Part shown: positions 13,533 through 45,409 of the stretch, one piece after another
How the letters are laid out: each line of letters opens with the position of its first letter
How positions within the stretch are numbered: position 1 is the stretch's first letter
Assembly: GCA_038062375.1 (NCBI GenBank)
Contig: JBBTXG010000002.1
Coordinates: 1-60,736, forward strand
DNA from: Patescibacteria group bacterium
GTDB lineage: Bacteria; Patescibacteriota; Minisyncoccia; Minisyncoccales; UBA10102
DNA: 60,736 nt
Reading direction: 5' to 3'
Translations under genes and position numbers: made by a program
The notes under the pieces: model-generated
What the model was told of the DNA's origin: nothing
What the model saw: only the letters and a program-made list of their open reading frames with translations
Databases searched by the model: none

Positions 13533-14269
13533 AGCCTTTTTCCTTCCAAAATTTCTCTGCTCTGCGGCCCTTCGTTGAAAAGCAAATCGAGAATGCACAT
13601 ATGGGAAAGAAACCCTTGTTCCATAAACTGCTGGGCATAGGAAGGGTGTTCGAATTCATGGATTTGGAGTTTGATTCCGGCATGCCCAAACTTTTCCGGC
13701 TCCATATATGCTTTCTTCCCTTCTCTCATTCCCGGCCCTGAAAGATACGTATCAGCTCCAAGCTCTTTGCAAATCTGCACCAAAAGATCAGTACCCTTGC
13801 CTTTTGCTTGCAGGTCGGAAGCTTTGAGCACTCGTAGAGAAATGTTCAGATACCGCGCAACTTCATTGAAAAATTGCCTGTCCAAATCCCCTATCTTCTC
13901 TCCATCCTCGCGAAAGACTTTCTGAACAATCTGCATCACTTCTTCAAAGTAGGGAGTCTTTCGGTAACTTTGACGAAGTACTCCTTCCTGGGACTCTTTC
14001 CAGTTCTTCGTATGATCAATCACCAAATCTTTAATGGGAGTAAAAGAAGATTTATCTTTCAAGGGAACCGTGATCCATTGCCCGCCATTCGATGTCTTCA
14101 CCCTGTTGCGATGAATGAATCCATGCTTTTGAAATGTGGCAGTGTCAAGTATCACATAGACATCTGCTTTCATCAATCTATTCCAAAATCCAATCCACGG
14201 CAGATATTCGGGCTGATGGATCATCACCACCATATCTTTGAGAATAGGATTTCTCAACTTAAAAGTCAA
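13529..14269 (-). CDS. WbqC-like family protein
   Basis: Motifs HQPEYLPWIG, RNRVKT, TYLSGPG and FLSHMCILDLLFNEG. Confidence 0.9.
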   Translation of the reverse strand: MTFKLRNPILKDMVVMIHQPEYLPWIGFWNRLMKADVYVILDTATFQKHGFIHRNRVKTSNGGQWITVPLKDKSSFTPIKDLVIDHTKNWKESQEGVLRQSYRKTPYFEEVMQIVQKVFREDGEKIGDLDRQFFNEVARYLNISLRVLKASDLQAKGKGTDLLVQICKELGADTYLSGPGMREGKKAYMEPEKFGHAGIKLQIHEFEHPSYAQQFMEQGFLSHMCILDLLFNEGPQSREILEGKRL

Positions 14270-14891
14270 CCTTTTCTGCAGGATTTCTTCCTCTGTAATC
14301 CTCTATCACTCCTTTTCCATATTCATCTTTTCCCGAGAGTATGAGGAAAAGCGTGCCGAGCAAAATTTTCAGATCAAGCAAGAAAGACCAGTGATCAATA
14401 TACCAAACATCCCATTGAATGCGTTCTTCCCATGAAAGCAGATTTCCTCCTTTGATCATATCCATGCTTGCCATGCCGGGGAGTACGCTTAAACGCTGTC
14501 GTTCCGACTCGGTATATCTTGCTGCTTGGTGAGGAAGTCCGGGGCGCGGACCCACCAAAGACATTTTACCTTCAAGGACAGAGATGAGCTGGGGAAATTC
14601 ATCAATGCGAAACCTCCTCAACCACTTCCCTACCTTTGTGATTCGAAAGTCATTTCTTTCGACCTCAATTCCTCTGCCCATGTGTACTGCCCCCTCCACC
14701 ATCGTACGGAATTTCAACATCTCAAAAACCTTTCCCTGTTTGCCCACCCGCTCTTGCTTGAAAAACACCGAACCCTTTGAATTTAGTCGAATCAGAACTG
14801 CGATAATCAAAAAAGGAACCGCAAGCAAAAGAAGACCAGCCAATGCTCCCCAAAAATCCATCTGTGTTTTTAAAAATCGTTGAAATTGCAT
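14259..14891 (-). CDS. Initiating phosphoglycosyl transferase (bacterial sugar transferase, PglC-like)
   Basis: Motifs FFKQERVG, KFRTM, RITKVGKWLRRFRIDEFPQL and MSLVGPRP. Confidence 0.93.
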   Translation of the reverse strand: MQFQRFLKTQMDFWGALAGLLLLAVPFLIIAVLIRLNSKGSVFFKQERVGKQGKVFEMLKFRTMVEGAVHMGRGIEVERNDFRITKVGKWLRRFRIDEFPQLISVLEGKMSLVGPRPGLPHQAARYTESERQRLSVLPGMASMDMIKGGNLLSWEERIQWDVWYIDHWSFLLDLKILLGTLFLILSGKDEYGKGVIEDYRGRNPAEKVDF

Positions 14892-15683: not shown

Positions 15684-16847
15684 TCAATGAAGTTTCTCTC
15701 TTATGAGGCGTTCATACTCCTCCATCAAAGTTTCAAAAATAACTTCTTGATTAAACTCTTGTGCTGCTTTTTGCCTTCCTGCTTTCCCTAACGCTTTTGC
15801 TTTCTCTGGATTCAAAAATAATTCCTCGATTGCCTCTACCAATCTTGCCACATTTCTGGGAGGAACAAGAATTGCAGTTTTCCCATCTTCTGCGGCTTCT
15901 CTACAGCCGCGGATTGCGGTGGCAACCACCGGCCTTTCCATCGCAGAAGCCTCAAGGATGGAGATACCCAATCCCTCTCGATACGTAGGAAGCACAAAAA
16001 CATCCATGATTGCATAGAATTCCTCGACATTGATGCGTTCGCCCAAAAACCTCACATTTTTTCCGATGCGGGAGCTTAGAACGATGGAGGGGTCAATGCG
16101 ATCACTTTTGGCAGGCTCTTTGGCGCCTATCATGATTAACACGGCGCCAGGGAACTTTTGTAACACACGATCGAACGCATCAAAAAGTTCAAGATACCCT
16201 TTTTCCCGCACGAATCTCGCGACAATTCCAATCACCTTGGCATCAAGGGGAATGGCGAGTCCTTTCTTTTTCTCTCTGCAAAATTCTTCAGAGAAACGCG
16301 CGGGATTGAATTTTTCAAGATCGATGCCAAGAGGAAGATACGTGAGCTTTTCAGGAGAATATATTCCCATCTTCAAGAGTTTGACAGTGTCTTCTCTGTT
16401 TACCGAAAATGCACGATGCACGAGAAGCGCGATGACTCTTTCGAGCAAGACGAAAAACGCTTTTTTCAGCAGAGAAAAATTATTTTCAAAATCCAAGCCA
16501 TGAATCGTATACATGCGAATTGGTACTCTTGCAACAAAAGCTGCAAGCTGTCCCACAAAGCTTGCTTTGAGGGTATGGGTATGCACGATATCAAATCGTT
16601 CTTTGCGAAACAAAAGGATGAGTCGGATGAATGCCCGTACATCGGTAAATGGGGTGAGGATCCTTCTGGTAATAGGAATGGTTTTCACGGAGATACCTGC
16701 CTGCCTGATCTCTGGGATCCATTTTCCATCAGAAGAAATTGCCCACACCTCAAACCCTTGTCTTTTCAGGTATTGAAGATTTGAAAACAAAAGAAACCGA
16801 AGCGTAATGTCAGCAGAAGCAACGGAGCAAATTTTTATCTTCTTCAT
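15684..16847 (-). CDS. Glycosyltransferase family 4 (PglA/CapM-like)
   Basis: Motifs DIVHTHT, ARFVREKG and FVLPTYREGLGISILEASAM. Confidence 0.92.
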   Translation of the reverse strand: MKKIKICSVASADITLRFLLFSNLQYLKRQGFEVWAISSDGKWIPEIRQAGISVKTIPITRRILTPFTDVRAFIRLILLFRKERFDIVHTHTLKASFVGQLAAFVARVPIRMYTIHGLDFENNFSLLKKAFFVLLERVIALLVHRAFSVNREDTVKLLKMGIYSPEKLTYLPLGIDLEKFNPARFSEEFCREKKKGLAIPLDAKVIGIVARFVREKGYLELFDAFDRVLQKFPGAVLIMIGAKEPAKSDRIDPSIVLSSRIGKNVRFLGERINVEEFYAIMDVFVLPTYREGLGISILEASAMERPVVATAIRGCREAAEDGKTAILVPPRNVARLVEAIEELFLNPEKAKALGKAGRQKAAQEFNQEVIFETLMEEYERLIREKLH

Positions 16848-17710
16848 ATTCGATACGTGAAAAACAACCTCAACCAAATAAAAAGAATGTATCCAAGGAG
16901 TGTGAGCCTGCGAAAAAATGGATAGCCTTTTCTCTCAAGGACGTCGCGCAGATAGGTATGGAGGTACGGCGTCAGCGATAGAAGAAACGGATAAAAGACT
17001 TTAATGAGCATACTCTTGAGGCGTGCTCTTTTACGAGGATACACTCGTTTGAAAAAAGAGGTTCGGTCAGTGAAACCAAAAGGTCCCTTGAGGAGCATTC
17101 GAAATACAAAATTCGCATCAGCTCCCCATTTTTTCCAGTTATCAACCAATTGAAACTCCACACCTCTTACTACTCCGCATTTCCATAATCCGTAAAGCAA
17201 ATTTGCCTTTCCATCGTGGTGAAGGAGCACGAGAAAACGTTTCAACTGCTCATACTGATCTTTGCCGAATGGAAAAAATGTATGAGGATCATGCATCTTT
17301 ATGATCTTCCCTTGTTCATCCATATACACAAAGTTACAAAAAACCATGATAAGATGGGGGGATCTCAAAAAGAAGGTTACACACTCTTGGAGAAAATGCG
17401 CGTCCCACACATCGTCGTGAGAAGCCCACATGAAATAGAATCCTTGAGCTCTCTCCAATACAAATCTGAAATTTTCTGTTGGAGTTCCAAGTCTCTGCTG
17501 CCTAAAATACCGAATTCGCGAATCTTTCCTTGTATATTCTTGGCAGATGTTGGAAGTTTCATCGGTAGAGGCATTGTCAGAGATAAGAAGTTCAAAATTT
17601 TGGTATGTTTGCGAAAGCAAAGAATCCAGTGCTTTTTTGATATAGAAAGCACCATTGTACACCGGCATGCCGATAGTCACCAGATCTCTTTGAGAAAACC
17701 CTTGATTCAT
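16844..17710 (-). CDS. Glycosyltransferase family 2
   Basis: Motifs VTIGMPVYNG, ISDNASTD and FMWASHDD. Confidence 0.92.
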   Translation of the reverse strand: MNQGFSQRDLVTIGMPVYNGAFYIKKALDSLLSQTYQNFELLISDNASTDETSNICQEYTRKDSRIRYFRQQRLGTPTENFRFVLERAQGFYFMWASHDDVWDAHFLQECVTFFLRSPHLIMVFCNFVYMDEQGKIIKMHDPHTFFPFGKDQYEQLKRFLVLLHHDGKANLLYGLWKCGVVRGVEFQLVDNWKKWGADANFVFRMLLKGPFGFTDRTSFFKRVYPRKRARLKSMLIKVFYPFLLSLTPYLHTYLRDVLERKGYPFFRRLTLLGYILFIWLRLFFTYRI

Positions 17711-23310: not shown

Positions 23311-24075
23311 TCATTTTTCCCACACCGCCCACGGCCGATCTTTTTTCCAGATCTCATTTAACTCCTGCATTTCTCGATGAGTATCCATTGACTTGAAAAA
23401 TCTCTCGTGCATATACACCGATAACTGATTCTGTTCGATCAACCTGGGAAACACACTTTCCATATCCCCCTTATCGAAATACTCAAATACCTCTCGCCGA
23501 AAAATCATGAATCCCCCATTCACACACTCTCCCATGAGAGGTTTTTGAACAAAGCTCTTGGCCAGACCCGTTTCCTTATCAAAGAGAAGAAGTCCGTACT
23601 TGGAATAGGGATGAACAGCCGTGACGGTGCCAAGCGTTCCTTGTTTTCGATGAAAAGAGACGAGTTGTTCGATGTTGATATCTGCCACTCCGTCTCCATA
23701 CGTAACCATGAATTCATCTTCGGTAATATAAGGTTTCGCTCTCAAAATCCGCTCTCCCGTGAGACTATCCAAGCCAGTTTCTGTAAAAGTGATGATAAAT
23801 CCGTCGTTCAATTTCGTGTGATAAGAGATCTCACCGTTTACGGTATCGATCGTAAAATCATTAGAAATCGCGCGTTCATAAAGGAAGTATTCTTTGATCA
23901 TCTCTCCTTTGTAGCCCAACGCAAGAACAAACTCATGGTATCCATAATGAGCGTATATTTTCATAATGTGCCAGAGGATTGGTCTTGGCCCCACCATTAC
24001 CAAGGGCTTTGGTTTAAACTCGGTTTCTTCTCTCAAGCGCGTGCCCAAACCTCCGCAGAGAATAATCGTCTTCAT
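23311..24075 (-). CDS. rfbF: Glucose-1-phosphate cytidylyltransferase
   Basis: Motifs LCGGLGTRLREETEFKPKP, PILWHIMKIY and TYGDGVADI. Confidence 0.93.
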   Translation of the reverse strand: MKTIILCGGLGTRLREETEFKPKPLVMVGPRPILWHIMKIYAHYGYHEFVLALGYKGEMIKEYFLYERAISNDFTIDTVNGEISYHTKLNDGFIITFTETGLDSLTGERILRAKPYITEDEFMVTYGDGVADINIEQLVSFHRKQGTLGTVTAVHPYSKYGLLLFDKETGLAKSFVQKPLMGECVNGGFMIFRREVFEYFDKGDMESVFPRLIEQNQLSVYMHERFFKSMDTHREMQELNEIWKKDRPWAVWEK

Positions 24076-24081
24076 AAAGAA

Positions 24082-25575
24082 TTAGACTCGAGAAAAACTC
24101 CATAGATGAACTCTATAGAAGAACAGGAGAAAAGTAAAGTAGATTCCCAACCCCACGAGACCTACCACTATCACATGGAAGGAAGAGAAAATGGGATGCC
24201 CAAGAGCAATCCCCATCAAGAGAGCCGAAATGCTCGCTGCCAATACCACACGGAGAAAATCGGGCGCGACAATTCTCGTGGGCGTAAAATTCCTCGCAAA
24301 GAGAATCCCGAGTATCAAAAGAATGGCATACCCTCCAACGGTAGCCCCAACCGCACCTTGGAGGCCAAAGAAAGGAATACCGATGAGCGATAGAAGAATA
24401 TAAGAAACTGCTCCCACGAATTGGCAGAGAAAATACTTTTTCTCTTTGTTGGAGACAACCAAAAGCACGCCGAAAGGAAGATAGAGGAAATAGAACCCAA
24501 TGATCAAAGAGAATACTTCAAGAACAGGAATCGCTCGTGCATAGGAGGACCCATAGAGAAAATCAACGAGTTTGGGAGCAAGAGAAAACCCTCCGACGAC
24601 AAGGGGTAAGGCAAGGACAACCATAACAGAAAGAAAATGAGACCAAATGCGTCTAAGTTCTTCTTGGGATTTCGCCCATGCTTTGCTTAACGCTGGCACA
24701 AAAGCGAGGGCAACCAAGGAAGCTCCAAGAAAGGCTGCTCCTGCCAACTGGAATGCAGCATTGTACCAGCCAACCTCTCTCACATACCCCCAGTACCCTA
24801 AAAGTGCAGAACTAAAGTACAGGTACACCCCTCCCATAAGCGAAGCAAATCCGATGGGTAATGAACTCTTCAGATATCGAATCCAGACAGGTCTATTCCA
24901 TTCGAGAGAGAGGGGGCGTATACGCACATGGAAAAAAACGAGAGAGGCTACCAAAGCAGCAAACGTTGCGAGGAGGTATCCATAACTCACATTCGCGAGA
25001 GAAGGAGCTTTCCAAAGCACCAACATACCCACCACCAAAAGAACTCCTCCATGGACACCCTTCAAAAGAGCCTCATAGTGCATGCGTTGGCGAGCTTGGA
25101 AAAAGGCAAAGAAGAGAGAAAGAAAATTTCGAAAAATGAGAAAAAGGGTCAATACCAAAATTGCATGCCTGATTGCCAAATCCTGCGTAACGAGAAAAGA
25201 GAGTGCCACCATCCCAACAAAAGTTCCCAAGGCAAAAAGAAGCTTGAGAGAAAGAAGCGAGGGGAAGTCCCGCTCTTTCAATGGAGAACGAGAAAATTCC
25301 CGCGGAATAATATCAGAAATGCCCATATCCGAAAACAATGCAAAAAGCGATACCAGTGCGAGAGCAAATTGAAACTTTCCAAATTCCCCTACCCCCAGAA
25401 TTCTCGCAATAGAAATCATCAACAAAACGTATACCCCTCTTTGCATCATTTCTCCCATCAAAAGCCATCCGAGATTCTTCCAGATTGTCTGTTGGATACC
25501 CTTATATTGAACTGTTGATTTTGTTTCGTTCACGAAAGAAAGAAAAAACTTTTGAAAACATACCCCCAAATTCAT
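24082..25575 (-). CDS. wzx: Wzx-type flippase
   Basis: About 12-14 TM segments with IARILGVGEFG, SDMGI and EVGWYNAA patterns. Confidence 0.88.
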   Translation of the reverse strand: MNLGVCFQKFFLSFVNETKSTVQYKGIQQTIWKNLGWLLMGEMMQRGVYVLLMISIARILGVGEFGKFQFALALVSLFALFSDMGISDIIPREFSRSPLKERDFPSLLSLKLLFALGTFVGMVALSFLVTQDLAIRHAILVLTLFLIFRNFLSLFFAFFQARQRMHYEALLKGVHGGVLLVVGMLVLWKAPSLANVSYGYLLATFAALVASLVFFHVRIRPLSLEWNRPVWIRYLKSSLPIGFASLMGGVYLYFSSALLGYWGYVREVGWYNAAFQLAGAAFLGASLVALAFVPALSKAWAKSQEELRRIWSHFLSVMVVLALPLVVGGFSLAPKLVDFLYGSSYARAIPVLEVFSLIIGFYFLYLPFGVLLVVSNKEKKYFLCQFVGAVSYILLSLIGIPFFGLQGAVGATVGGYAILLILGILFARNFTPTRIVAPDFLRVVLAASISALLMGIALGHPIFSSFHVIVVGLVGLGIYFTFLLFFYRVHLWSFSRV

Positions 25576-28500
25576 GGGTTTGAAAGTAAAAAGGAAAGAG
25601 GGTGAAAAGTACGAGGAAAGCGGGAATGCGAATTCTCATCAAAGTTCCTAAGTCCTCAATGGTCAAGGTGATTCCGGCGAATATCCCAAACGAAACAAGA
25701 ATAATCGGAAACCATCTTCTCCATTGGGGCAAGGAACGGAGAATCCCTTTTGTGGTGAAAAAGATAAAAAGAGCCCATGGAATGGTTTCTCCGAGTACGA
25801 AAAGTTGGCGAGCGTAATGAAGCTCCCATGGAAAAGGGCCAAGCGCGACCGAAGCGAACGAAAGGAAGGAATACTTGAAAAACGAGAATGGGTTTTCGAA
25901 CATCCGCTCTCGACTGTGCAAAGAATCAGATGTCCTTTCTTCTGAAATCCAAGGAAGCCTCCCTCTTTCCAAAGACTCTCGGGAGAAAAGAACCTGTTTA
26001 TCGTTTGGATTCCAAGGCTTCAAGAACAAAACAGTTTCTTCTTGGGATTTCTCGAATAAGAAGAAGGGAAATGGGGTTATCACCCTCTCCCCTCGAATTC
26101 CATTGCCCATCACCTCCACGCGAGGCGCCATGAGCACTTGCGTAACCTTTGAAATTCCATAATACCCGTAACCCCACAACACAGGAATGCATCCAACAAG
26201 CAACATCAGAAAGAGACCGTATCGAAGCCGACTGCGCCAAGCAATAGAAGAACACATAAAGAAAGAAGCCACGAAAGCAATTCCTCCGATGAGTCCCACA
26301 TAGAAACGAAAGTGCACAAGCAAAAACAAGAGCAGAAGAACTCCAAAAACATTTCTTGCCGAGAATGTTCCAAGGGTCTTGAGCATCCACAGAACAAAAC
26401 TTAACACAAGGACTGCAACAATGCTCTCCCGTAAAAGCAAACTCCCAAAATAAAGATAGCTCGGATAGAAACCAACCAGATATCCGGGAACCAGCGCCCA
26501 TCTTGCTTGTGCGCCGAGTTGTCTTGCAATCAAAAAAACAAGCACTGCGGAAAGACCCGCAAGCCACACATTCAGCATTTTCCCAAAGAGTTGGTCTGGC
26601 ACCCCAACCACGTAGATTGCTCCGATCAAGAGCGGGTAATAATGATCAAAGGTGTCATTCTCTCTAAGATGTTGCTCGATACTCTTCCAAGAAAAATCTC
26701 CCTGACGGAAATCCTGTGCAATGGAAACCGCGGCTCGATGGTAGTACTTCTGATCTCCTTCTCCTCTTCCAAATGGGTAAAACTCTGCGTAATGAACAAA
26801 CAATGTACCAATGAGATGGAAAGAAAGCACCACCGAAAACAGAAAGATAAGGGAAGGTTTCCCAAGTCCAAATCTCCTCCCCATCAGGAACGTTCCCAGG
26901 ATGAAAGAAAAAAGAAAAAGAAGTGAGAAGCCCAACGCTCTATCGAAAAGAGCGATTCCCAGGAGCATCACAATTCCTCCCAAGAAGAGGCGGCGCATTT
27001 TCAAAAATCGATCGTCTTGAGTCCGGTGGAAAAAAGATCTTATCTTCTCTTTCCACTCTCCCCACGAAAACCTCCATATACCTGCTGTCTGAATTCCCTT
27101 GACGGCAAAGGGCAAAAGCACAAGGAATGCAGGAATGCGAATGCGCATGTAGGTTCCATAATTATTGAGAAATAGCGCGAGGAGCGCAATGATTCCCAGC
27201 GCGACCATGAGGACAGGGATCATTACTCTCCATTGAGACCTCGCCGCAAAGATTCCTTTGAACACAAAAATCAAGAGCACTATCCATGGGATGGTTTCGA
27301 TCAATACAAACAGTTGGCGAGAATAACGAATATGCCATGGAAAGGGACCAAGCGCGACAGAAGCCAAAGAAGCAAGGTAGCTTTTCCCAAATATCAGGGG
27401 ATTCTCAAAATCTGCTTTTGCTGCAATGGTAGAACCAGGTTCCGGATTCTTGGGTGAAATTGAAACTGGAGAAGGGTTTTGAGAAGGCGGGGAAGGGGCT
27501 GGCAAGGGAATTTGAGGCGGAGTTGGTTTTGCAATTTGAGGCGGAGAACCAACAGAAGGAGAAACGACTTGTAATGTCCCTTGAGAAGAAGGTTTGACTT
27601 GATTCTGAAGAGCCCGGTTTATTTCTTTATCTCTCTGTTGGGCAACATCCGAATAGGCCCGGTAAGAAGCAATCACCTCTGGTTTCAGATAGTAAGCGAT
27701 CTGATCTTTGGCAAAATATCCATGCCCCCAAAATTGGGGCAAAAATCCAAGCAGAGGGAACAGAACCACTGCATACGCAAGTCTGGTCCGCCATTCGAGG
27801 CGAGGAAGGAAAAGCCATGAAACAACAAATATCCCCAATAGTATAAATCCAAGATATTCTCGGAAATGAATGAGCCAAAATACCGCAAGGGCAAAAAGGG
27901 AAAATGTGCGCCAGGAAAAATGCTTGATGAGCTTTATGACCGAAAGTAGGGCAAACAACACCAAAAAAACCACCAGACCTTCTTTGAGGAGTAGGCTTCC
28001 AAAATAGAGATAGCTGGGCAGAACACCCCCCAGATATCCGCTAAGCACTGCCGCTTTTCTGCCCAAGCCAAGCTCTAAAGCAATGAGATAGAGTACAATC
28101 ACCGAAATTCCCACAAACCACACGCTTACCATTTTTCCAATAATTTTTGCAGGCGTGGTAGCTGCATAGAGTCCTCCCAGCAACAGAGGATAATAGTGTT
28201 CGAGTTGGTATGCCTTGATGCTCGCCAATGAGAAATTTCCTTGGCGAATATCTTGGCTAATTGCTGTTCCTACACGATGGTAGATTCGCTGATCTGATCC
28301 CTCTTTCCCTCCAAAAGGATAAAACTCTCCATAATGGATAAACAGCGTGGCTCCCAAATGAACGAGTACTACAAGGAGGAAAAGAATTCCAAGGGAACTC
28401 GTATAGATGCCGATTTTCCGTATCAAAAAGAGCGTTCCCATGCTCAAGAATCCAAGCAAAAGAAATGCAAAGAGGAGTTCCTGATTCGCGAGGGCTATAC

Positions 28501-29875
28501 TCCCGAATATCAGAGAGAGAAGAAGCACTGTGCTCCTCTGCACAATCTTTTCATGAAATTTGATCCAATGCCACCAAGAGCCGATTTTGGAAAAAATTGC
28601 TTTGGTTCTTACGGGAAAAGAAAAACTCACCAACGAAAGAAGCGCGAGGAAGGCGGGAATACGAAGACGCATTGTCATGCCAGAATCCATCTCATAGAGA
28701 GAAAGCAAGAGAAACACCCCGGCGCCAAAAAGAATCAGAGGAAAGGCGACTGTGCGGCGTTCCTGGAAAGAACGAAAAATCCCTCTCCCCACCAAAAACA
28801 GCAAGAAATACCAGGGAATCGTTTCTGCAAGAAAGAAAATATTTCGAGAAGATTGTATCTCCCAAGGGAAGGGTCCGAGCAGCGCTCCAAGGAAAGACTG
28901 GGCGATCTTGCCAAGGCCAGAGAGAATACCAGAACTCATCTCAACCTCGGTCCCCACAAGAGGGAGCGCAAGCGCTTGACCAAAACTTCCTCCCCAAGCA
29001 CTTTGGGTAAGAAATTCAGAAATGAAAGGAACGAAAAGAATCAAGAGCACAACGAGCCCCAACGAGGAAATGTTCTTTCTTGGAGAAAGAGTGCTCCAAA
29101 GGATGAAAGAAAACAGGCTCGCAATTCCCAGGACAATACCAACGGAAGAACGCACGTGCGCAGCAAGAAGCAAGGCTCCGTAAAAAGAAAAAAATACCTT
29201 CCAAGAAAAAAGTTTGAGGGATTTCATGAGGAAAAGAAGTCCCGCAAGGAGAGAGACAATCAGGAGGCTGTCTTCGAGCAGAGCGCCAGAAAAAAGAAGA
29301 AAGCTTGGATACAAAGAAGCAAGGAATCCCACCAGAAGAGCTCGATGAAAAGATCCCCCGATTTCCCTGACGAGCAAAAAGAGGAAAAGAGTCGCAAGAA
29401 CTGAAAGCCAAACGCCCAAGAGCTGCCCCATGAGCACATGAGGAATCGTGAACCAATAGACATACCCCACGAGCACCGGAAAGAGATGATCCAAACCTAA
29501 ACCGCGCAAGGAAAAATTCCCTTGAGAAATGCGTTCTGCAACGTGGCGAGCTTGGGTATGATATTCCTCATAATCTGCTCCTCCGCTTATAAAAGCGTCG
29601 AAGCCCGAACCAGACAGAAAAAGAATCGGAAGGAGATGGAGAAAAAGTGCAAAGAAAAGGAGAATAAAAACTTCTTTTCTTTGTAATCCCATCCTCCAAA
29701 GTACCTCCATGGTTCCTGCCATAAGAAATACAAGTAATCCAATCCCAACAACGAGCGGATGTTCAAAGAAGAGCATCGCAATCAATGCTCCAAGAAATAA
29801 AGCAGCTTTTCTCCAGAAAGCATATTTATGAAGGAGAGTGAAAGTTGTCATGAATCTGAATAATTCCCGTATCAT
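25502..29875 (-). CDS. Large polytopic membrane protein with three tandem GT-C/Wzy-like units
   Basis: Each of these motifs occurs three times: D...YH......(S/A)..(I/F).QG.FS, PS(Y/F)L.F...LL.(E/D), LGPFPW, L.ETIPW and R(I/L)RIPAFL.L. Alternative start at 29851. Confidence 0.75.
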   Translation of the reverse strand: MIRELFRFMTTFTLLHKYAFWRKAALFLGALIAMLFFEHPLVVGIGLLVFLMAGTMEVLWRMGLQRKEVFILLFFALFLHLLPILFLSGSGFDAFISGGADYEEYHTQARHVAERISQGNFSLRGLGLDHLFPVLVGYVYWFTIPHVLMGQLLGVWLSVLATLFLFLLVREIGGSFHRALLVGFLASLYPSFLLFSGALLEDSLLIVSLLAGLLFLMKSLKLFSWKVFFSFYGALLLAAHVRSSVGIVLGIASLFSFILWSTLSPRKNISSLGLVVLLILFVPFISEFLTQSAWGGSFGQALALPLVGTEVEMSSGILSGLGKIAQSFLGALLGPFPWEIQSSRNIFFLAETIPWYFLLFLVGRGIFRSFQERRTVAFPLILFGAGVFLLLSLYEMDSGMTMRLRIPAFLALLSLVSFSFPVRTKAIFSKIGSWWHWIKFHEKIVQRSTVLLLSLIFGSIALANQELLFAFLLLGFLSMGTLFLIRKIGIYTSSLGILFLLVVLVHLGATLFIHYGEFYPFGGKEGSDQRIYHRVGTAISQDIRQGNFSLASIKAYQLEHYYPLLLGGLYAATTPAKIIGKMVSVWFVGISVIVLYLIALELGLGRKAAVLSGYLGGVLPSYLYFGSLLLKEGLVVFLVLFALLSVIKLIKHFSWRTFSLFALAVFWLIHFREYLGFILLGIFVVSWLFLPRLEWRTRLAYAVVLFPLLGFLPQFWGHGYFAKDQIAYYLKPEVIASYRAYSDVAQQRDKEINRALQNQVKPSSQGTLQVVSPSVGSPPQIAKPTPPQIPLPAPSPPSQNPSPVSISPKNPEPGSTIAAKADFENPLIFGKSYLASLASVALGPFPWHIRYSRQLFVLIETIPWIVLLIFVFKGIFAARSQWRVMIPVLMVALGIIALLALFLNNYGTYMRIRIPAFLVLLPFAVKGIQTAGIWRFSWGEWKEKIRSFFHRTQDDRFLKMRRLFLGGIVMLLGIALFDRALGFSLLFLFSFILGTFLMGRRFGLGKPSLIFLFSVVLSFHLIGTLFVHYAEFYPFGRGEGDQKYYHRAAVSIAQDFRQGDFSWKSIEQHLRENDTFDHYYPLLIGAIYVVGVPDQLFGKMLNVWLAGLSAVLVFLIARQLGAQARWALVPGYLVGFYPSYLYFGSLLLRESIVAVLVLSFVLWMLKTLGTFSARNVFGVLLLLFLLVHFRFYVGLIGGIAFVASFFMCSSIAWRSRLRYGLFLMLLVGCIPVLWGYGYYGISKVTQVLMAPRVEVMGNGIRGERVITPFPFFLFEKSQEETVLFLKPWNPNDKQVLFSRESLERGRLPWISEERTSDSLHSRERMFENPFSFFKYSFLSFASVALGPFPWELHYARQLFVLGETIPWALFIFFTTKGILRSLPQWRRWFPIILVSFGIFAGITLTIEDLGTLMRIRIPAFLVLFTLFPFYFQTHEFGGMFSKVFSFFRERNKINSSI

Positions 29876-31052
29876 AACTTACAATGCGCTCGTACAATGG
29901 AATCTGTTGGACATGAGGGAAGTGGTGATGAAGATACGCTGAAATTTCTTCTTGGAAGGGATAGGAAGAGATCAACACAGGGATTTTCGCTTTACGCAAC
30001 AATTCAGGGCTTTGAACCCAATGTCCTTCAAAAAACGTATTCCACTTCCTTGGGTTTGAATCCACAATAGCTTCAATCGCCCGTTCTCCCAAGATTCCCG
30101 ATTGAATCAATTGGGAAGTATGCCCTCCTGCGCCATAGATGATAAGTCTTTTGATTTGGGGATCCAACCGTGAACGGAGCTTTTCCAACAATGCGGTTCT
30201 CTTTTTCTGATATTCCTCCATCACGTGCTTCATCTCCTCCACGCCACTCTCCAACGGTTTCTGTCTCTCTTGTTCATTCTGGAGGAGCACTCGGATCGCA
30301 GAAATCTCGGGTACCGGCTCCATAACGATGATGCGAAGACCGAGTCTTGCAGCAAGATTTCTCAAAGAGGATTGCGTGAAATGAAGAAGGTGATGAAAGG
30401 AAAAAAAGTCAGTTAATTGTTCTGCCCATGGACGCTCGGTATCTGGAACTTCCACATAGATATACTTGCCAGGATTGGTAATTCTCTTTGCGAGTTCTAA
30501 AAACTCCATGGGATCTCGCACGTGCTCTAACACATGACGTATCGTGACGATATCAAAGCTCCCGGAGAGCTGCCGAACAAATTGCTCATTGAAAAATCCA
30601 TGAGAGATCGAAATCCCATACTTTTTCGCAGCTTCTTGACAAGCCTCGAGAGACGGCTCTACGCCGGATACCTCGTATCCTCGATCTCTTGCGAGCAAAA
30701 GCAGATCTCCGTTGAAGGCTCCTACATCAAAGAGGGTTTTACAATCAGGAGAAACATGACTCGAAAGAAATTCTAACTGCGAAATCCGAGGGGAAGCCGA
30801 AATCTCTCCAAATCTGCTGTACGTTTCGTAGTACCACTCCAGGCTTTCCTTGGAAGGTTGAGGATTTGTGTACACCATTGCGCAACGCTTACAAATCACT
30901 TGTCTTGCGAGCCAGAGAAAAAGTTCATTGTCATGCCAAAACCGAAATTTGTTTTCGTAGAGCGGCTCGAACTCTCGAGACTCACACAGAGGACAATCAA
31001 TCTCTTGAGACTCAATCGTATGCTCAAGGGTTTTCTTTGATGTTTCTCTCAT
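29826..31052 (-). CDS. Class I SAM methyltransferase with N-terminal Zn site and C-terminal Rossmann-like domain
   Basis: CPLC...CKRC, FDVGAFNG, HVLEHV and IIYGAGGHT. Confidence 0.82.
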   Translation of the reverse strand: MRETSKKTLEHTIESQEIDCPLCESREFEPLYENKFRFWHDNELFLWLARQVICKRCAMVYTNPQPSKESLEWYYETYSRFGEISASPRISQLEFLSSHVSPDCKTLFDVGAFNGDLLLLARDRGYEVSGVEPSLEACQEAAKKYGISISHGFFNEQFVRQLSGSFDIVTIRHVLEHVRDPMEFLELAKRITNPGKYIYVEVPDTERPWAEQLTDFFSFHHLLHFTQSSLRNLAARLGLRIIVMEPVPEISAIRVLLQNEQERQKPLESGVEEMKHVMEEYQKKRTALLEKLRSRLDPQIKRLIIYGAGGHTSQLIQSGILGERAIEAIVDSNPRKWNTFFEGHWVQSPELLRKAKIPVLISSYPFQEEISAYLHHHFPHVQQIPLYERIVSYDTGIIQIHDNFHSPS

Positions 31053-32044
31053 AGGTTTTTGAGAAGAGAAATCCAGGCATTTCCAAATTTTTCCAATGTA
31101 AACTCTTTTGCAAAAAGATGTCCTTCCTCCCCCCTCTTTTCTTGAATCTGTGGGTTGGTCAACAAAAACTCTACTTTTCCTTTCAAGTCACGAAAATCTT
31201 CACAGATGATTTGTCTCCCTCCCTCCAGAAGTTCTCGCATGCCTGCAATTCCAGATCCAATCACCGGAGTTTTTACAAGCATTGCTTCATGCGCGGTTCT
31301 GCACCATCCTTCTTTCAATTTGGACATTGCAAGCGCCACGCACGAAGCTTTCAGCAAAGTCAAATACTCCCGGTATCTCACTTGAAAGTTTCTTACCGGA
31401 AGCTTCACTTCTTGTCGCCCGGAGGTTACCAGATGCACGGGAAGATGCTTTAACGCATGATATGCTTCCACCACTCCTTTTGGTCTTTGGCAATTCCCCA
31501 GATAGATAATTGGTTTCCCTTGGAGGCCGTACCTCTCCTTGAACTCTTGAACTTCTTGGGCTGGAATCTCAAATGAAGCAGAATCAAATCCATTATAGAT
31601 AACATGGATATTGGAATATCCTTTGTTTCCGAAATACTCTTTCCAAAATTGAGAAACCACCACAATCGCATCTATTTTTTTCAGGTTGCGAAAGAAAAGT
31701 TTCGTGAGAACAAAAAATACGGGCTGGGAGACCAAAGGGAATCCTGAAAAATCAAGATGATGCATAATCGCCACATTCTTTCCTTGAGTTCTATCAAAAG
31801 GCAGGGTGAGCACCGAATAAAAATCTCGAATCCAGATATCCTTTTCTCCTTTCAAACGCGAAAGACGCAAGAGGGACTCGGGAATCTTAAGGTATCGAAA
31901 TCTCTTGAGATGCTTGGCTTGCATATCCACAAGTTCCACATCAAAGTTTCCGGATACCATATCCCTTGCTTGTTCGTTGTACACAATCGCCCCTTGTTTT
32001 CGCAGGGAAATCTCGATCCACCCTATTGTCTTTCTTGTATCCAT
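31049..32044 (-). CDS. Glycosyltransferase family 4
   Basis: Motifs VVSQF, VIYNG and EGWCRTAHEAM..TPVIGS. Confidence 0.85.
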   Translation of the reverse strand: MDTRKTIGWIEISLRKQGAIVYNEQARDMVSGNFDVELVDMQAKHLKRFRYLKIPESLLRLSRLKGEKDIWIRDFYSVLTLPFDRTQGKNVAIMHHLDFSGFPLVSQPVFFVLTKLFFRNLKKIDAIVVVSQFWKEYFGNKGYSNIHVIYNGFDSASFEIPAQEVQEFKERYGLQGKPIIYLGNCQRPKGVVEAYHALKHLPVHLVTSGRQEVKLPVRNFQVRYREYLTLLKASCVALAMSKLKEGWCRTAHEAMLVKTPVIGSGIAGMRELLEGGRQIICEDFRDLKGKVEFLLTNPQIQEKRGEEGHLFAKEFTLEKFGNAWISLLKNL

Positions 32045-32069
32045 AACCAACAGTTCAGATGCCACCGTC

Positions 32070-33596
32070 TTATCGTTTGATAATATACAAAGCAAGTTCG
32101 TTGCCCAAATGTTCTGGCTTTTCTAAACTTTGCGTTCCTCCTTCCATACGCACTCCTTCCTCGGAGACAAATCTCCCGTTCGGAATATCATACCAGTACA
32201 AATCGTATATCCCTTGACTCATCCCTTCAAGCCCCATGTTTCCCTGAAGATTCCACGCATAGAGAATATAACTTTCTCCCGGATTTGCCAACACGTACTC
32301 GGTGCCTCCAGATGCCAACTCATCGGAAGGCGTCATTTCATCGAAAGTCGTTGATTCAAAGAATTGTTGGAGCCTTCTCATATCTCCGAGCATCTCTTGA
32401 GTTGGGGTACTATTCTCGTAGTAAGGGTTCCACGCGCCAAAGGTCAAATGGAAAGCGCCAGCCATTGCAATTGCCCAATGAATCTTGCGAAGCGTTTCTC
32501 GATCCCCTCTTTGGAGAACTTCAATGAGGGGTATAATCTCTCCATACACTACTGCATATCCCTTCTTTGCAGCCCGAACCGCTCCAACCGCATGGCGATG
32601 ATATTCTCGAGAATCATTACTCCCCTCTTGCAGTTGAATGAACAGAGCATCGATGTTTCGGTCACCTTCAAATCGAGAAAAAGTTGCGGGTTTTAACACA
32701 TGAACCCCAATGCCATGTTTATAGTCGTCTGTTTGGCCAATCGTCTCTGCGATTTTTTTCGTGTGCGGCACATACTCTTGCCAAGATACATGAAGAAATG
32801 CAAAAAGAATCAACGAACTCCCTCCTAGGATAAGGAAAGAAAATCCAATCAGCCCAAGATATCTCCTCTCCATCCTTTTGAGAAAGACGACAATGGCATA
32901 CGAAAGAATGAGGAGAAATGCAATACCCAAAAAGAAACTCGTTCCTCGATGTTCTCCAAAAAATCTCGCACAAAACTCGAGCGCGCCCCTGATTTTCACT
33001 GCAAGAGGTACGAAGAAATCAGGAACTTGTCTGGCAGACATTTCCTCTGTCTCCTCCATGACCACCCAAACAAGATTCTTGTGGTGCTCAAAACGATTCA
33101 CCAACGTTTCAATAAAATAGCGTTCTTGGGGATGCAGATTCCCTTGAAGATTCATCGGCCACCCAAGCTCCGATCGAATGGAAATTCCGTCATCATAAAA
33201 GAAAAATACGATCGTAATTCCGGCCTTTTCCATGTCATCGAACCATTCTTCCCACTGGTGAAGAATATCCTCGTCAAGCTCTCCCTGAACATCAGAATCA
33301 ACAAAAGGATTCTCCGTCAAATCTCCATCGCCGTGAGAACGCAACGCCAACACAACCATTGCATTCCCTCCAGAACTTTTCACGCGCTCGATGAGCTCTT
33401 TTTGATCTCCATTCCTTGTGCCATCAGGGTTTCGTATCCCTCGATAGAGAAACCCTTCGGGGTCTGCCAGACCAATAAGAAAAGGATGCCTATCAAGATC
33501 CGTGAGAACCCGACCTTCACTGCCCGCACCCTCCAAGGGAATAAATCCCCAAAAGACCATTGAACCCAAAAGAAGTAAAAAAAGAAATGTTCTCAT
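32070..33596 (-). CDS. Exported glycoside-hydrolase-like (DUF4038/apiosidase-like TIM barrel) protein with an internal TM hairpin
   Basis: Signal peptide; RFEHHKNLVWVVMEE; C-terminal LANPGESYILY...YDLYWYD beta domain; two hydrophobic helices mid-protein. Confidence 0.55.
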   Translation of the reverse strand: MRTFLFLLLLGSMVFWGFIPLEGAGSEGRVLTDLDRHPFLIGLADPEGFLYRGIRNPDGTRNGDQKELIERVKSSGGNAMVVLALRSHGDGDLTENPFVDSDVQGELDEDILHQWEEWFDDMEKAGITIVFFFYDDGISIRSELGWPMNLQGNLHPQERYFIETLVNRFEHHKNLVWVVMEETEEMSARQVPDFFVPLAVKIRGALEFCARFFGEHRGTSFFLGIAFLLILSYAIVVFLKRMERRYLGLIGFSFLILGGSSLILFAFLHVSWQEYVPHTKKIAETIGQTDDYKHGIGVHVLKPATFSRFEGDRNIDALFIQLQEGSNDSREYHRHAVGAVRAAKKGYAVVYGEIIPLIEVLQRGDRETLRKIHWAIAMAGAFHLTFGAWNPYYENSTPTQEMLGDMRRLQQFFESTTFDEMTPSDELASGGTEYVLANPGESYILYAWNLQGNMGLEGMSQGIYDLYWYDIPNGRFVSEEGVRMEGGTQSLEKPEHLGNELALYIIKR

Positions 33597-36432: not shown

Positions 36433-36531
36433 CTGCCTAGTATATCCAACCTGTCCCTCAAAATCAACTTGACAGAACTCACTTCCATATACTATTCTAT
36501 TTCCAGAAAGACCGATGGAACTCATCTTTTG

Positions 36532-36569
36532 TACTATACTATAGATGCTATAGCATTTATAGTATAGTA
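36532..36569. repeat. 38-bp loop-less palindrome (one mismatch)
   Basis: TACTATACTATA-g-ATGCTA|TAGCAT-t-TATAGTATAGTA. Confidence 0.85.
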
Positions 36570-36689
36570 AATTTCGATTACGCAAATCAGAATATCTTTT
36601 GGCCTACTGTTGAGTGGGCAATTCTAAAGAAGTTGGCTTTCGTGAAATGGTTAGTAGTTAGACGCTCAACATCTAACACCACAGAAGGG

Positions 36690-39510: not shown

Positions 39511-39517
39511 ACAGTTT

Positions 39518-42983: not shown

Positions 42984-44165
42984 TCAAACGATACGCTGCT
43001 CGAGTCGTTCAACAAAGCGTTTCATATCAAAATCTTTTGCCCTCAAGAACGCCCTTTCTTTCAACATCTTTGATGTATGTTCATTTTTCAAAAGTTCAAG
43101 GATTGCTTTTCCAAATAATTCCTCTTGGAGGGAAGGTTCCATTGCTCCGGTGAATTCGCTTGATCCTACCGGCACCAAAATTCCATATTCTCCATACTCC
43201 ACATCTCGAGCTTGCGCACGAAAGGAGCTCGAGGGCGCAAGAATCTCCCGAGGACCCGAGGTGCAATCAGTAGAAACAACGGGAAGACCGCACGCCATTG
43301 CTTCCACGATACTCATCGGGAATCCTTCCCATGAAGAACACAATACAAATACTTTCGCTTTCGCAAGAAATTTATAGGGATTTGTCTGCCAGCCCAAGAA
43401 ATGCACGAGTTCTGCTATCCCGAGTTCGTTGGCAAGTTCTTTCAGAATCTTTTCCCATTCCCCTTCTCCAAGAATTACAAGGTGTGTTCCGGGCAATCCT
43501 TCTTTCACTCTCAAAAATGCTTCGAGAAGATGCCACTGTGCTTTTTCTTTACTCAACCTACCCATCGTGATTACCACCGGATGAGAGAAGAGCTGCTCAA
43601 AACTTGGCTCGAGCGGTTCTCTCGAAAGTTGTTCGATTTTCTCAAGATCAATGGGGTTATACCAAACTTCAATCTTTTCTTTTGGAACGCCAAAATGCTT
43701 CTCCAGATCTTCGCCCGCAGCTCTTGAAACCACAATGACGCATGCTGCCTTATGGAACAAAAACCGAGCTATGAGCTTATAGAGAAATCCCCAGAAACCT
43801 TTTTTTGCTTGAGAGGGGAAAGAATCTACTCTCACCATTGGTCTTGTGTTGAGCAAGAGCGCAATCAACGCAGCAGCTCCTCCAAAGGTAATCACTCCAT
43901 CGGGGTGCTCTTCTTTTATAATCTTTCGAAATTTGAAAAATCGAGGAATCAGACGATAGAATCGCAGGAAAAAATTTCTCGAAAGTGGTTCATCGAGACT
44001 CAAAAGCCGCGCTTCATAAGGGTATGCAATTTTTTTCTCAAAAAGTACAATGAGAGACTCTACGGAATCTGCAAGATGAAGTGAAAGTTCAGAAACTAGA
44101 CGTTCTCCTCCTCCGTAAAAAAGTGTAGGGATAAAAAAGAGAATTTTTTTCTTTTGTTGGCTCAT
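42984..44165 (-). CDS. Glycosyltransferase family 4 (PglJ-like)
   Basis: Motifs GGGERLV, GRLSKEK and EGFPMSIVEAMACGLPVVSTDCTSGPREIL. Confidence 0.92.
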   Translation of the reverse strand: MSQQKKKILFFIPTLFYGGGERLVSELSLHLADSVESLIVLFEKKIAYPYEARLLSLDEPLSRNFFLRFYRLIPRFFKFRKIIKEEHPDGVITFGGAAALIALLLNTRPMVRVDSFPSQAKKGFWGFLYKLIARFLFHKAACVIVVSRAAGEDLEKHFGVPKEKIEVWYNPIDLEKIEQLSREPLEPSFEQLFSHPVVITMGRLSKEKAQWHLLEAFLRVKEGLPGTHLVILGEGEWEKILKELANELGIAELVHFLGWQTNPYKFLAKAKVFVLCSSWEGFPMSIVEAMACGLPVVSTDCTSGPREILAPSSSFRAQARDVEYGEYGILVPVGSSEFTGAMEPSLQEELFGKAILELLKNEHTSKMLKERAFLRAKDFDMKRFVERLEQRIV

Positions 44166-45409
44166 GAAGGTGAACTCAAAAGAAAGGAGAATACGCGCTT
44201 GGCCGCGTTCCCATCTTGATGCACGAAACAAAGATCTCTCTGACGTTTCCTTGCTTCTTTGAAATGATCTTCTCTTTTCAACGTCTCTTCTAAAATCTTG
44301 AGAAAATCTTCAAACGTATACGCCTTTGGGCCTGGAGTAAACTCATCGTAGTCAAAATAGAGTTCTCTGTCCTTGGTAACATATTTTTCCAAATCGTATG
44401 CAAAAAATATCTCTGGCCGATCCAACAAAAGAAAATCGACGAAAATGGACGAGTAGTCAGTAACCAGAACGTCGGCGAGTTTGAGCAAAGGGTAGGAATC
44501 CGTCACTGGCAAAACGAATATGATATGGGAATACTCTCCTTGTGGTATTGAGATTCGAGTAAAGGGATGAACTTTTACCACGAAAAATGCGTGGGACCTC
44601 TCGAGCAATCCATTGAGCATTTCGAGCTTCTCCCTCTCTTCTAAAAACGACTGATCGCCCGTATCTCGAAAAGTGGGTGCATAGAGTACTACTTTTGAAC
44701 CTTTTTGTTTTAATTCCTGAATCTTTTCATGCGCATGCAGATCAACGCCAACTTCAGCTCCCGGAATCTCGCGCATCAATACATCAGTCCTTGGACACCC
44801 TACCTGGATAATTCTTTCCTCGGGAATGTCAAATGCAGACCGAAAAATTCCGGTATAGAGAGGAGAAGGACTTGCTACATAATCTGGCTTGACAAAGCGC
44901 CAAGGAAAAAGAAAGCGCATTGCCAATTTAAGAATTCCTTGAGAAGCAAAAAGGAGAACTTCGCTTGACTCTCCTTTTTTCACATCCTGCTCCATCTTTT
45001 TGATCGGAAGCGCATGGAACAAATTGATGATCTTTGCCCCTCCCGATAACCAATAGCTGATCACTTCAACAGAGGTATCCGTGATAAAATACTTTGCTCT
45101 CAAAAGGTACCAGATTCCTTGAAAAGATTTCCCTTGCACTGCAAGGCATCCTTTTCCCCGAAGCTCGTCTCCAAGCTCTTCATTCCGCGAAATCCATATT
45201 GCCTTGATACCAGAATCTTTTGCGTTATTTTGGATATGCAAAAAGAGATACTTGCCATTCCCCTCAAACTTCCTCGGATGCCCAAACACCCAAATCTTCT
45301 CCTCTCGCGGCACAAGGTAAGAAAAAAATCGAATGAGAAATAAAAAGGGGTGTACAAGAAGACAAAAAAGATACCGTCTTATTTTCTCCCCATTCATGTT
45401 TATCTTCAT
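44162..45409 (-). CDS. CDP-glycerol glycerophosphotransferase family (TagB/TagF-like)
   Basis: Motifs FHALPIKK, GCPRTD, LYAPTFRD and LVTDYSSIFVDFLLLDRP. Confidence 0.9.
   Translation of the reverse strand: MKINMNGEKIRRYLFCLLVHPFLFLIRFFSYLVPREEKIWVFGHPRKFEGNGKYLFLHIQNNAKDSGIKAIWISRNEELGDELRGKGCLAVQGKSFQGIWYLLRAKYFITDTSVEVISYWLSGGAKIINLFHALPIKKMEQDVKKGESSEVLLFASQGILKLAMRFLFPWRFVKPDYVASPSPLYTGIFRSAFDIPEERIIQVGCPRTDVLMREIPGAEVGVDLHAHEKIQELKQKGSKVVLYAPTFRDTGDQSFLEEREKLEMLNGLLERSHAFFVVKVHPFTRISIPQGEYSHIIFVLPVTDSYPLLKLADVLVTDYSSIFVDFLLLDRPEIFFAYDLEKYVTKDRELYFDYDEFTPGPKAYTFEDFLKILEETLKREDHFKEARKRQRDLCFVHQDGNAAKRVFSFLLSSPS

Follow-up and report, generated by a model that had tools for sequence, protein, structure and literature searches.

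The stretch of DNA analyzed here, referred to as the window, comprises 60,736 nucleotides of contig JBBTXG010000002.1 from a Patescibacteria group bacterium (assembly GCA_038062375.1, positions 1 to 60,736 of the forward strand), and it holds one long minus-strand glycan locus that extends from ~8 to 45 kb. Within this locus lies an open reading frame (ORF; 25502..29875, minus strand) whose translation of 1457 amino acids, free of internal stops, consists of three fused membrane units of the GT-C glycosyltransferase type. We consider it highly probable that this is a real single gene encoding three complete, diverged GT-C-fold modules, which belong to a small, mostly Patescibacteria family that remotely resembles PMT and ArnT.

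The protein divides into unit 1 (u1, amino acids 1-440; 28556..29875), unit 2 (u2, amino acids 441-950; 27026..28555) and unit 3 (u3, amino acids 951-1457; 25505..27025), all on the minus strand. An earlier reading made from the sequence alone (the sequence-only reading) had proposed three tandem units of ~450-500 residues, and BLASTP comparisons bear this out: u2 and u3 are 38.5% identical over 501 residues (E 2e-96), and u1, the most divergent unit, aligns with u3 at 29% identity over 352 residues (E 1e-31) and 44% over 106 residues, and with u2 at 35% over 157 residues (E 2e-23) and 47% over 92 residues. The family profile matches u2 with an E-value of 5e-171. At the DNA level, u2 and u3 share only four short patches of 72-83% and u1 shares none. 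Judged from these alignments, the repeats reflect homology, not chance, and the repeat is an old one. Five motifs, all of which had been picked out beforehand together with the positions of LGPFPW, are each found exactly three times, once per ~500-residue unit. They are DYEEYH in u1 (amino acids 101-106; 29558..29575) with its counterparts DQRIYH in u2 (528-533; 28277..28294) and DQKYYH in u3 (1041-1046; 26738..26755), all on the minus strand; PSFLLF, PSYLYF and PSYLYF at residues 190, 620 and 1138; LGPFPW at residues 333, 842 and 1345 (nucleotides 28862-28879, 27335-27352 and 25826-25843); ETIPW at residues 351, 860 and 1363; and R[LI]RIPAFL at residues 403, 911 and 1414. The units also differ in the length of an outer loop, EL4, which comprises 133 residues in u2, 118 in u3 and only 51 in u1. 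In u2 it carries a Pro/Ser-rich stretch (amino acids 754-813; 27437..27616, minus strand) with 17 prolines in 60 residues, which had been described as an insertion in that unit; this part of the description did not hold, as the loop is long and variable across the whole family, and the equivalent loop in the model of u3 is disordered (pLDDT, the per-residue model confidence, <50 at residues 305-374).

The continuity of the reading frame was examined in public sequence data. The source genome, a groundwater Patescibacteria genome of 670,814 bp, is 86.6% complete, and the stretch is present in 8 public runs from 2 studies, all labelled groundwater metagenome; none of the runs listed is of RNA. 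Four of these runs (X1, X3, X5 and X7) were compared as Logan contigs and not as raw reads, so that minority frameshifts are possible. In X1, X3 and X5 a single Logan contig covers all of 25400-29975, with 0, 2 and 3 substitutions, respectively, and no indel; three of the substitutions are missense. In X7, the only one of the four that is not flagged as a possible source, several pieces overlap to cover the stretch, and among them records 6 and 9 bridge the junctions u2/u3 (~27025) and u1/u2 (~28555). These junctions, near 27.0 and 28.6 kb, had been singled out for checking, and both are spanned or bridged, with no indel, by Logan contigs from runs of the two studies. The same protein occurs as P0070 in the protein collection, where it starts 8 codons later (1449 amino acids) and is found on 3 contigs. 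An assembly error, or three neighbouring genes wrongly read through as one, is on these data very unlikely. A three-gene ancestor is plausible, as two separate unit genes stand side by side in three of the wider loci described below, and the evidence consists of contigs. However, the frame is open for 4374 nucleotides (1457 codons), the contigs that cross it are free of indels in both studies, and one of the runs that bridge the junctions is not flagged as a source. A misassembly through collapse of repeats is implausible because the likeness in DNA amounts to the short patches between u2 and u3, with none to u1. The linkers also argue for a genuine fusion, since they are made of the tail and head of the adjacent units with the charge pattern conserved. 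The u1-u2 linker (amino acids 422-448; 28532..28612, minus strand) is rich in Lys, Arg and His, the u2-u3 linker (amino acids 929-962; 26990..27091, minus strand) is rich in Lys and Arg, both are predicted to be cytoplasmic, and each is bridged by an X7 contig.

Structure models were made for u1 and u3 with AlphaFold2 using the family alignment, and the fold of u2 was deduced from its 38.5% identity to u3. The models are of good quality by their own scores (u1: pLDDT 85.8 and pTM, the predicted template modelling score, 0.86; u3: pLDDT 81.1 and pTM 0.82). In structural comparisons (VIA), u1 matches Pmt4 (Z 21.9), AglB (21.8), ArnT (21.6) and PglB (19.6), and u3 matches AglB (19.8), Pmt4 (19.7), ArnT (19.6) and PglB (18.3). 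The top 20 chains have the GT-C fold in both cases, with Z-scores of 11.8-21.9 for u1 and 11.5-19.8 for u3, and the next chains score 9.2 and 7.0, respectively; the chains below the GT-C matches are unrelated helical proteins (Z 7-9). Among the top 20 are Pmt4, AglB, ArnT, Pmt1/2, ALG12, STT3, PglB, PIG-M and AftA/B/D, as well as ALG3/9/6, PimE, EmbA/B and DPY19; three of the 20 for each model are glycosylphosphatidylinositol (GPI) transamidase entries, which are not glycosyltransferases. A Foldseek search with u3 likewise returned only GT-C proteins at ranks 1-24, with weak E-values (best 2.6e-3) and a template modelling score of about 0.44. By sequence the relationship is remote. The whole protein scores 17 bits against Pfam PMT_2 (PF13231; 16.8 bits in the genome search), where the gathering cut-off is 26.1, and weak matches among 32 family members are to PMT_2 in 16 (E<=0.01, best 2.3e-6) and to PMT in 11. 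One homologue is named ‘glycosyltransferase family 39 protein’ by NCBI. No NCBIfam family matched any unit, a family-profile search of all Protein Data Bank sequences gave only one chance match (E 5.8) and reached no solved GT-C protein, the STT3 Pfam families gave no match at E<=1, and no WWD motif was found in the protein. In the genome-wide search for Wzy_C (PF04932), the window gave no match, and the genome's only one lies on another contig (G000:C7:23632-24111). Structures of WaaL, RodA and Wzy are not among the 50 matches listed for each model, an absence that excludes no family. The label ‘GT-C/Wzy-like’ given in the sequence-only reading therefore stands in its first half, as the models of u1 and u3 have the GT-C fold by VIA and that of u3 by Foldseek as well, and finds no support in its second, because the window contains no Wzy_C match and the strong structural matches are of the PMT/ArnT/OST/ALG/Aft type (OST, oligosaccharyltransferase). 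We accordingly assign the units to the PMT/ArnT/OST-like GT-C class, for u1 and u3 as modelled structures and for u2 through its identity to u3. Sequence searches place them in a small, uncharacterised family that lies below the Pfam and NCBIfam thresholds, occurs mostly in Patescibacteria and is only remotely like PMT and ArnT.

Residue conservation was assessed in an alignment of 32 sequences composed of u1-u3 and 29 single-unit homologues. Fourteen columns are invariant (D91, Y95, S112, Y138, P188, R240, G396, P397, W400, E413, G460, R464, R466 and P468 in u3 numbering), and u1, u2 and u3 each retain all 14 residues, so that no unit looks like a dead scaffold. The invariant set covers the Asp and Tyr of DxxxYH, the Arg after helix 5, GPxxW, the Glu of ETIPW and RxRxP. 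The Asp that had been noticed in the first extracytoplasmic loop is present in every unit (residues 101, 528 and 1041) and is invariant in 32 of 32 sequences; it lies ~10 residues past the first helix of the core, in a loop of 56-64 residues that follows this helix and contains two or three short helices. This residue, a candidate catalytic Asp, would by its position be the counterpart of the catalytic Asp in PglB, ArnT or PMT.

The secondary structure of the u1 and u3 models comprises a 10-helix core preceded by a 2-helix N-terminal hairpin, with which a table of hydropathy and charge agrees. As the structural matches begin at about residue 50-65 of each unit, the two extra helices precede the canonical first GT-C helix. 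In every unit the short loops assigned to the inside contain 1-4 Lys/Arg and hardly any Asp/Glu, both inter-unit linkers are basic, and the invariant residues, when the model helices are mapped onto the three units, lie at positions assigned to the outside, either in loops or at helix ends. The units end 19-25 residues past the last helix, with no soluble C-terminal domain. Natural fusions of single units provide an independent indication of the orientation. Single units occur with a C-terminal GT4 of two types, with GT4 plus a Bac_transf phosphoglycosyl transferase (P0082), with an FkbM-type methyltransferase at the C-terminus (5 of 18 long proteins scanned: P0086, P0128, P0109, P0095 and P0106), with C-terminal class I methyltransferases, and with a radical SAM/SPASM domain (P0101); in P0077 a GT4 is instead fused to the N-terminus. 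Because these partners need cytoplasmic substrates, both ends of the unit should be cytoplasmic. Taken together, the secondary structure, hydropathy, loop charges and fusions suggest 12 membrane helices per unit with both termini inside, and ~36 helices in the whole protein. With both ends in the cytoplasm the units can be concatenated without inversion, and the three predicted active sites would all face outward. A complex prediction for u1 and u2 (950 residues, each with its own alignment) scored 0.00 in both runs and is silent on whether the units pack. The fusions of GT-C units with each other, with GT4, with GT4 plus phosphoglycosyl transferase and with methyltransferases also serve as Rosetta-stone links that indicate which enzymes cooperate in this uncharacterised pathway.

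An exhaustive HMMER search with u3 against 1.84 billion representative proteins yielded 283 matches at E<=1e-3; among the 150 of these that were listed, three units occur only in the window's own protein and two units only in P0071. A word-indexed search restricted to proteins of 801-2550 residues retrieved 15, namely the window protein, three two-unit proteins (936-975 residues) and eleven fusions of GT-C with GT4-type domains. The kind of enzyme is known, proteins with two units are rare, and of the matches listed the triple tandem fusion alone has three units. In the literature covered, which does not extend to subscription papers, no description of a tandem GT-C fusion was found. A profile search of the window's genome found no further copy of the unit. 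Single-unit homologues do exist in related genomes, where the sequence-only reading had suggested looking for them: in the taxonomic family, 15 of 35 other species genomes carry the unit and none has it in multi-unit form, the complete copies being single ORFs of 448-593 residues (the copy in genome G447 is fragmented over two contigs). Of 400 other genomes sampled evenly across the phylum, 1 gave a match at E<=1e-10. When 185,579 species genomes were scanned by pattern, 38 wider loci were located, mostly in Patescibacteria (for example Wildermuthbacteria, Staskawiczbacteria, Nealsonbacteria and Parcubacteria). None of the 38 contains a multi-unit ORF, and three (L033, L057 and L063) contain two separate unit genes ~0.9 kb apart, an arrangement that is a plausible precursor state of the fusion. 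One of the two unit genes in L057 (5986-9831, plus strand) is itself a 1282-residue ORF in which one GT-C unit is followed by ~830 residues, and the second lies 0.9 kb upstream. Locus L036, on a 5.8-Mb Phycisphaerales chromosome (CP070678.1), has one family member with GT4 and phosphoglycosyl transferase homologues nearby; this planctomycete copy may have been acquired by horizontal transfer.

In a tree of 141 rows, u2 and u3 fall in one 14-row clade (97 in the Shimodaira-Hasegawa-like approximate likelihood ratio test, SH-aLRT), and the long branch of u1 belongs to another clade, of 11 rows (SH-aLRT 99). When u2 and u3 were forced to be sisters, the tree was not rejected and scored better than that of a short free search (approximately unbiased test, p-AU 0.62). 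The branching therefore allows that u2 and u3 arose by an old internal duplication, as they may have, and u1 is probably, although not certainly, derived from another subfamily. The two-unit proteins P0071-P0073 each combine units from two different clades, neither of which is that of u1; because their first units lie outside the u1 clade, they arose independently of the window protein.

The genes that surround the triple GT-C ORF belong to the same minus-strand locus. Directly downstream, overlapping the end of the ORF, is a Wzx-type (MOP) flippase (24082..25575; PF01943, E 2.5e-26; NF041871, E 1.9e-16, below cut-off), in keeping with the adjacency to wzx that had been noted earlier. Directly upstream is a SAM-dependent methyltransferase (29826..31052; PF13489, E 7e-20), followed by a short, divergent GT4 of 348 residues (31049..32095; PF00534, E 2e-8), a counterpart of which adjoins the single-unit gene in L017, L020, L022 and L023 and is present in 13 of the 38 wider loci. 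Further upstream follow an FkbM methyltransferase, a GH57-like gene, a NeuB-like set, and a GT4 related to ‘type B’ with a TagF-like glycerophosphotransferase (42984..45409, minus strand), a pair that recurs beside the single-unit genes of relatives. On the downstream side, a small PglC-like phosphoglycosyl transferase (Bac_transf; 14259..14891, minus strand; PF02397, E 1.3e-58) has the same domain that ends P0082, and two genes from it lies a ‘type A’ GT4 (15684..16877, minus strand). In other organisms, single GT-C units carry the orthologue of this GT4 fused at their C-terminus, and the identity is 53% with the GT4 portion of P0022 and 51% with that of P0082. The locus also encodes a PglF-like dehydratase, two DegT aminotransferases, a hexapeptide acetyltransferase, PIG-L, WbqC, GT4 and GT2 enzymes, several methyltransferases, an N-formyltransferase and a dTDP/CDP-sugar set. 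The best matches of the single GT2 in the window (16844-17710) are soluble GT2s that build chains (GalT1 and chondroitin synthase), and among the window's genes, to which the search was confined, none was recognised as a GtrB/DPM1-type synthase. The window encodes no polytopic membrane protein other than the triple protein, Wzx and the PglF-like dehydratase.

In the loci of 11 relatives, the single unit is accompanied by the short GT4 upstream, a 305-residue SDR epimerase downstream, Wzx, further GT4s and sometimes the TagF-like gene; Wzx stands beside the unit in several of them (L017, L022, L023 and others), and a GT2 is present only in L020, L023 and L025. Within 6 kb of the unit in the 38 wider loci, a GT4 is found in 33, a GalE-like SDR epimerase in 31 and a phosphoglycosyl transferase in 13. 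All 16 unit-bearing family genomes have a PF01943 match. Wzx is nevertheless more widespread than the unit (27 vs 16 of 36 family genomes, some of the weak Wzx matches being probably MurJ-like), so that the co-occurrence test says that every unit-bearing genome has a flippase, and no more. The triple protein had also been called the only polymerase or ligase candidate of the locus; this is correct across the window and not across the genome, which encodes on contig C7 (locus L027) a Wzy_C+TPR protein of 837 residues (Wzy_C match at 23632-24111) and, ~17 kb away, a second Wzx-type flippase (G000:C7:6206-7018). Of 35 family genomes, 24 have Wzy_C matches, in proteins of ~740-870 residues, and the C7 flippase and Wzy_C+TPR protein probably form the core surface-glycan ligase system of the lineage. 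An LCP protein was not found in this 86.6%-complete genome.

Several other minus-strand genes of the window deserve mention. The region 38461-42953 encodes a NeuB-like synthase, a thiamine pyrophosphate (TPP)-dependent decarboxylase split into ORFs of 169 and 187 residues, an ATP-grasp ligase and an Fe-alcohol dehydrogenase; the split enzyme presumably resembles sulfopyruvate or phosphonopyruvate decarboxylases, and the sub-cluster may make an unusual acidic or phosphonate substituent. A 581-residue ORF (32070-33815) without a Pfam or NCBIfam family has a hydrophobic start resembling a signal (residues ~74-97) and, internally, two hydrophobic helices, and beside it lies the 717-residue GH57-like protein (34432-36585), both being located between glycosyltransferase genes. 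At the edge of the glycan locus, a protein of 1152 residues (45761-49219) with one N-terminal hydrophobic segment and no Pfam match is a possible secreted or surface substrate. A 537-residue protein (51504-53117), which has a membrane anchor at its N-terminus as well as two lamin-tail domains (PF00932, E 2e-32), is located near an extracytoplasmic function (ECF)-type sigma factor and a DUF5667 protein.

The explanation that we favor, and to which we give about an even chance, is that the protein acts on the glycan made by this locus in three lipid-linked glycosyl transfers, with the donor, acceptor and division of labor deduced from context. As background, GT-C enzymes act at the membrane's outer face with lipid-linked donors and have a membrane domain of ~7-13 helices (PMC11127046), and in lactococci separate GT-C enzymes polymerise, anchor and add side chains to one polymer (PMC10821137). 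In the proposed scheme, the cytoplasmic enzymes of the locus (the PglFED-like sugar genes, the PglC-like transferase, the GT4s and the methyltransferases) would build a glycan on undecaprenyl phosphate, the adjacent Wzx would flip the lipid-linked glycan, and the three modules would use lipid-linked donors for as many as three distinct outward-facing transfers. One module or more would probably move the flipped oligosaccharide en bloc to an acceptor, which could be a protein, the wall or a growing chain, in the manner of an OST or ligase, and the remaining modules would extend or branch the glycan. The fusion would fix the stoichiometry and proximity of the modules, and the number of units would mirror a locus that is unusually large and complex in this species. 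For this sequence of cytoplasmic assembly, flipping and up to three outward transfers we would claim even chances at most. We favor units that handle a flipped lipid-linked glycan because their fused and adjacent partners build undecaprenyl-diphosphate glycans, Wzx adjoins them, and the cassette contains no other outward-facing enzyme. They would have different jobs because u1 belongs to another clade than u2 and u3, and because relatives manage with one unit and have much smaller loci. The earlier suggestion of an assembly line, either a polymerase plus a ligase or three side-chain transferases, is still a reasonable inference.

Several observations weigh against this explanation. The family is uncharacterised, and the donors used by its closest sequence families (PMT and PMT_2) and by ArnT are monosaccharides on polyprenyl monophosphate instead of oligosaccharides. 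The units do not have the soluble C-terminal domain and WWD motif of PglB, AglB and STT3, and the separate Wzy_C+TPR protein of the genome could be the ligase. Wzx was detected within 6 kb of the unit in at least 10 of the 38 wider loci (phmmer, E 1e-8, a lower bound), and flippases of the Wzx type, such as GacK, operate in single-sugar systems as well (PMC10821137). The separate origin of u1 is borderline, as forcing the three units into one clade costs 53.6 log-likelihood units with a p-AU of 0.06, and the 160-kDa single chain is a prediction from the frame. Each unit could instead be a GtrC/GacL/YfhO/ArnT-like enzyme that adds one sugar as a side branch or cap, from a polyprenyl-monophosphate sugar flipped by a Wzx-type protein, with the polymer exported and anchored by other proteins such as the C7 Wzy_C+TPR protein. 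This is the main rival, and we judge it the less likely of the two although by no means negligible. The sole Pfam likeness of the units is to PMT_2/PMT, they are compact with no large soluble acceptor-binding domain, such systems use flippases of the Wzx type (GacK/GacL; PMC10821137), systems with three components occur widely (PMC11127046), and a candidate ligase lies elsewhere in the genome. The GalE-like epimerase that accompanies the unit in 31 of 38 loci also recalls PgfE, which accompanies PgfM1/M2 in S. mutans (bioRxiv 10.1101/2024.05.05.592596). However, such decorators would be expected to have a GtrB/DPM1-type synthase, none of which was recognised in the window (a genome-wide search was not made), where the one GT2 resembles soluble enzymes; the scarcity of GT2 in the relatives' loci points the same way, and the natural fusions to GT4 and phosphoglycosyl transferase indicate a line that makes undecaprenyl-diphosphate glycans.

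The remaining alternatives are less likely, among them the artefact discussed above. The three units could form a hard-wired oligomer: single-unit enzymes of the family would act as homo-oligomers, and the window protein would be three such protomers concatenated to perform one reaction, with units that are isofunctional or of which only one is catalytically important. Dimers of GT-C proteins are known from the titles of structure entries (Pmt1-Pmt2, the Pmt4 homodimer and EmbA-EmbB), and u2 and u3 may be sisters by internal duplication. This arrangement is nonetheless improbable, because identities of 29-39% and the separate clade of u1 speak for a long independent divergence, a pure scaffold would not need the invariant residues that every unit keeps, and in the two-unit proteins, too, the joined units come from two clades. 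We regard it as very doubtful that the units are Wzy-type polymerases or WaaL-type ligases: the gene does sit beside wzx, the usual place of Wzy, and the window has no other polytopic candidate, but it has no Wzy_C match, a true Wzy_C protein is encoded on contig C7, and all structural matches above Z 11 have a GT-C fold of the PMT/ArnT/OST/ALG/Aft type. Beyond the three lipid-linked transfers that we favor, a bolder extension, which we consider unlikely, is that the family is an undescribed class of flippase-coupled glycan transferases that replaces Wzy, WaaL and LCP in minimal genomes, and that the 1457-residue protein is a covalent line of three stations at which one surface glycan is polymerised, branched and anchored. 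If so, this protein of ~36 membrane helices would be the first GT-C enzyme known in triple-fused form.

These results bear on a group of bacteria, the Patescibacteria, that live attached to other cells and whose surface chemistry is almost unknown. The locus and its relatives define a compact recurring cassette composed of GT4s, an epimerase, often Wzx and a phosphoglycosyl transferase, and one GT-C protein, which alone among these enzymes faces outward. As a membrane-protein architecture the triple fusion is unusual, and it could be used to study how several GT-C active sites cooperate, and the family may merit its own CAZy family, as ORF12 founded GT136 (PMC11127046). If the units are ordinary side-chain transferases, the finding would be a gene-fusion curiosity.

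Among known systems, the units resemble ArnT (GT83) and Pmt1/2/4 (GT39), which have the same fold (Z 19.6-21.9 over ~300-330 aligned residues), a conserved Asp after the first helix of the core and weak Pfam matches in common with them. Unlike these enzymes, the units score below the Pfam cut-off, have two extra N-terminal helices, an even helix count and the C-terminus inside, carry no MIR or periplasmic domain, and occur three to a chain. The fold is also shared with PglB, AglB and STT3 (AglB Z 19.8 for u3 and 21.8 for u1; PglB 18.3 and 19.6), and the context is pgl-like, as the window locus contains PglF-, PglE-, PglD- and PglC-like genes and GT4; the differences are the missing soluble C-terminal domain, WWD motif and STT3 match (E<=1), as well as a flippase that is here of the Wzx type. 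The systems GacI/J/K/L, the lactococcal WpsA/B/G/H/J with CsdC/D-CflA, and PgfS/PgfE/PgfM1/PgfM2 of S. mutans combine a Wzx-type flippase with GT-C enzymes that act outside on a wall polymer or protein, and they resemble the window locus in having several GT-C enzymes per pathway and an epimerase partner. However, in those systems the GT-C enzymes are separate proteins whose donors come from a GT2 synthase, whereas in the window the units are fused and their partners are GT4s and a phosphoglycosyl transferase. Wzy and WaaL are similar in their site next to wzx, polytopic nature and outward loops, and differ in the Wzy_C signature, which the window lacks. The closest parallels in architecture are P0071, P0072 and P0073 (936-975 residues), which like the window protein join GT-C units of two clades in tandem and in frame, with two units and not three.

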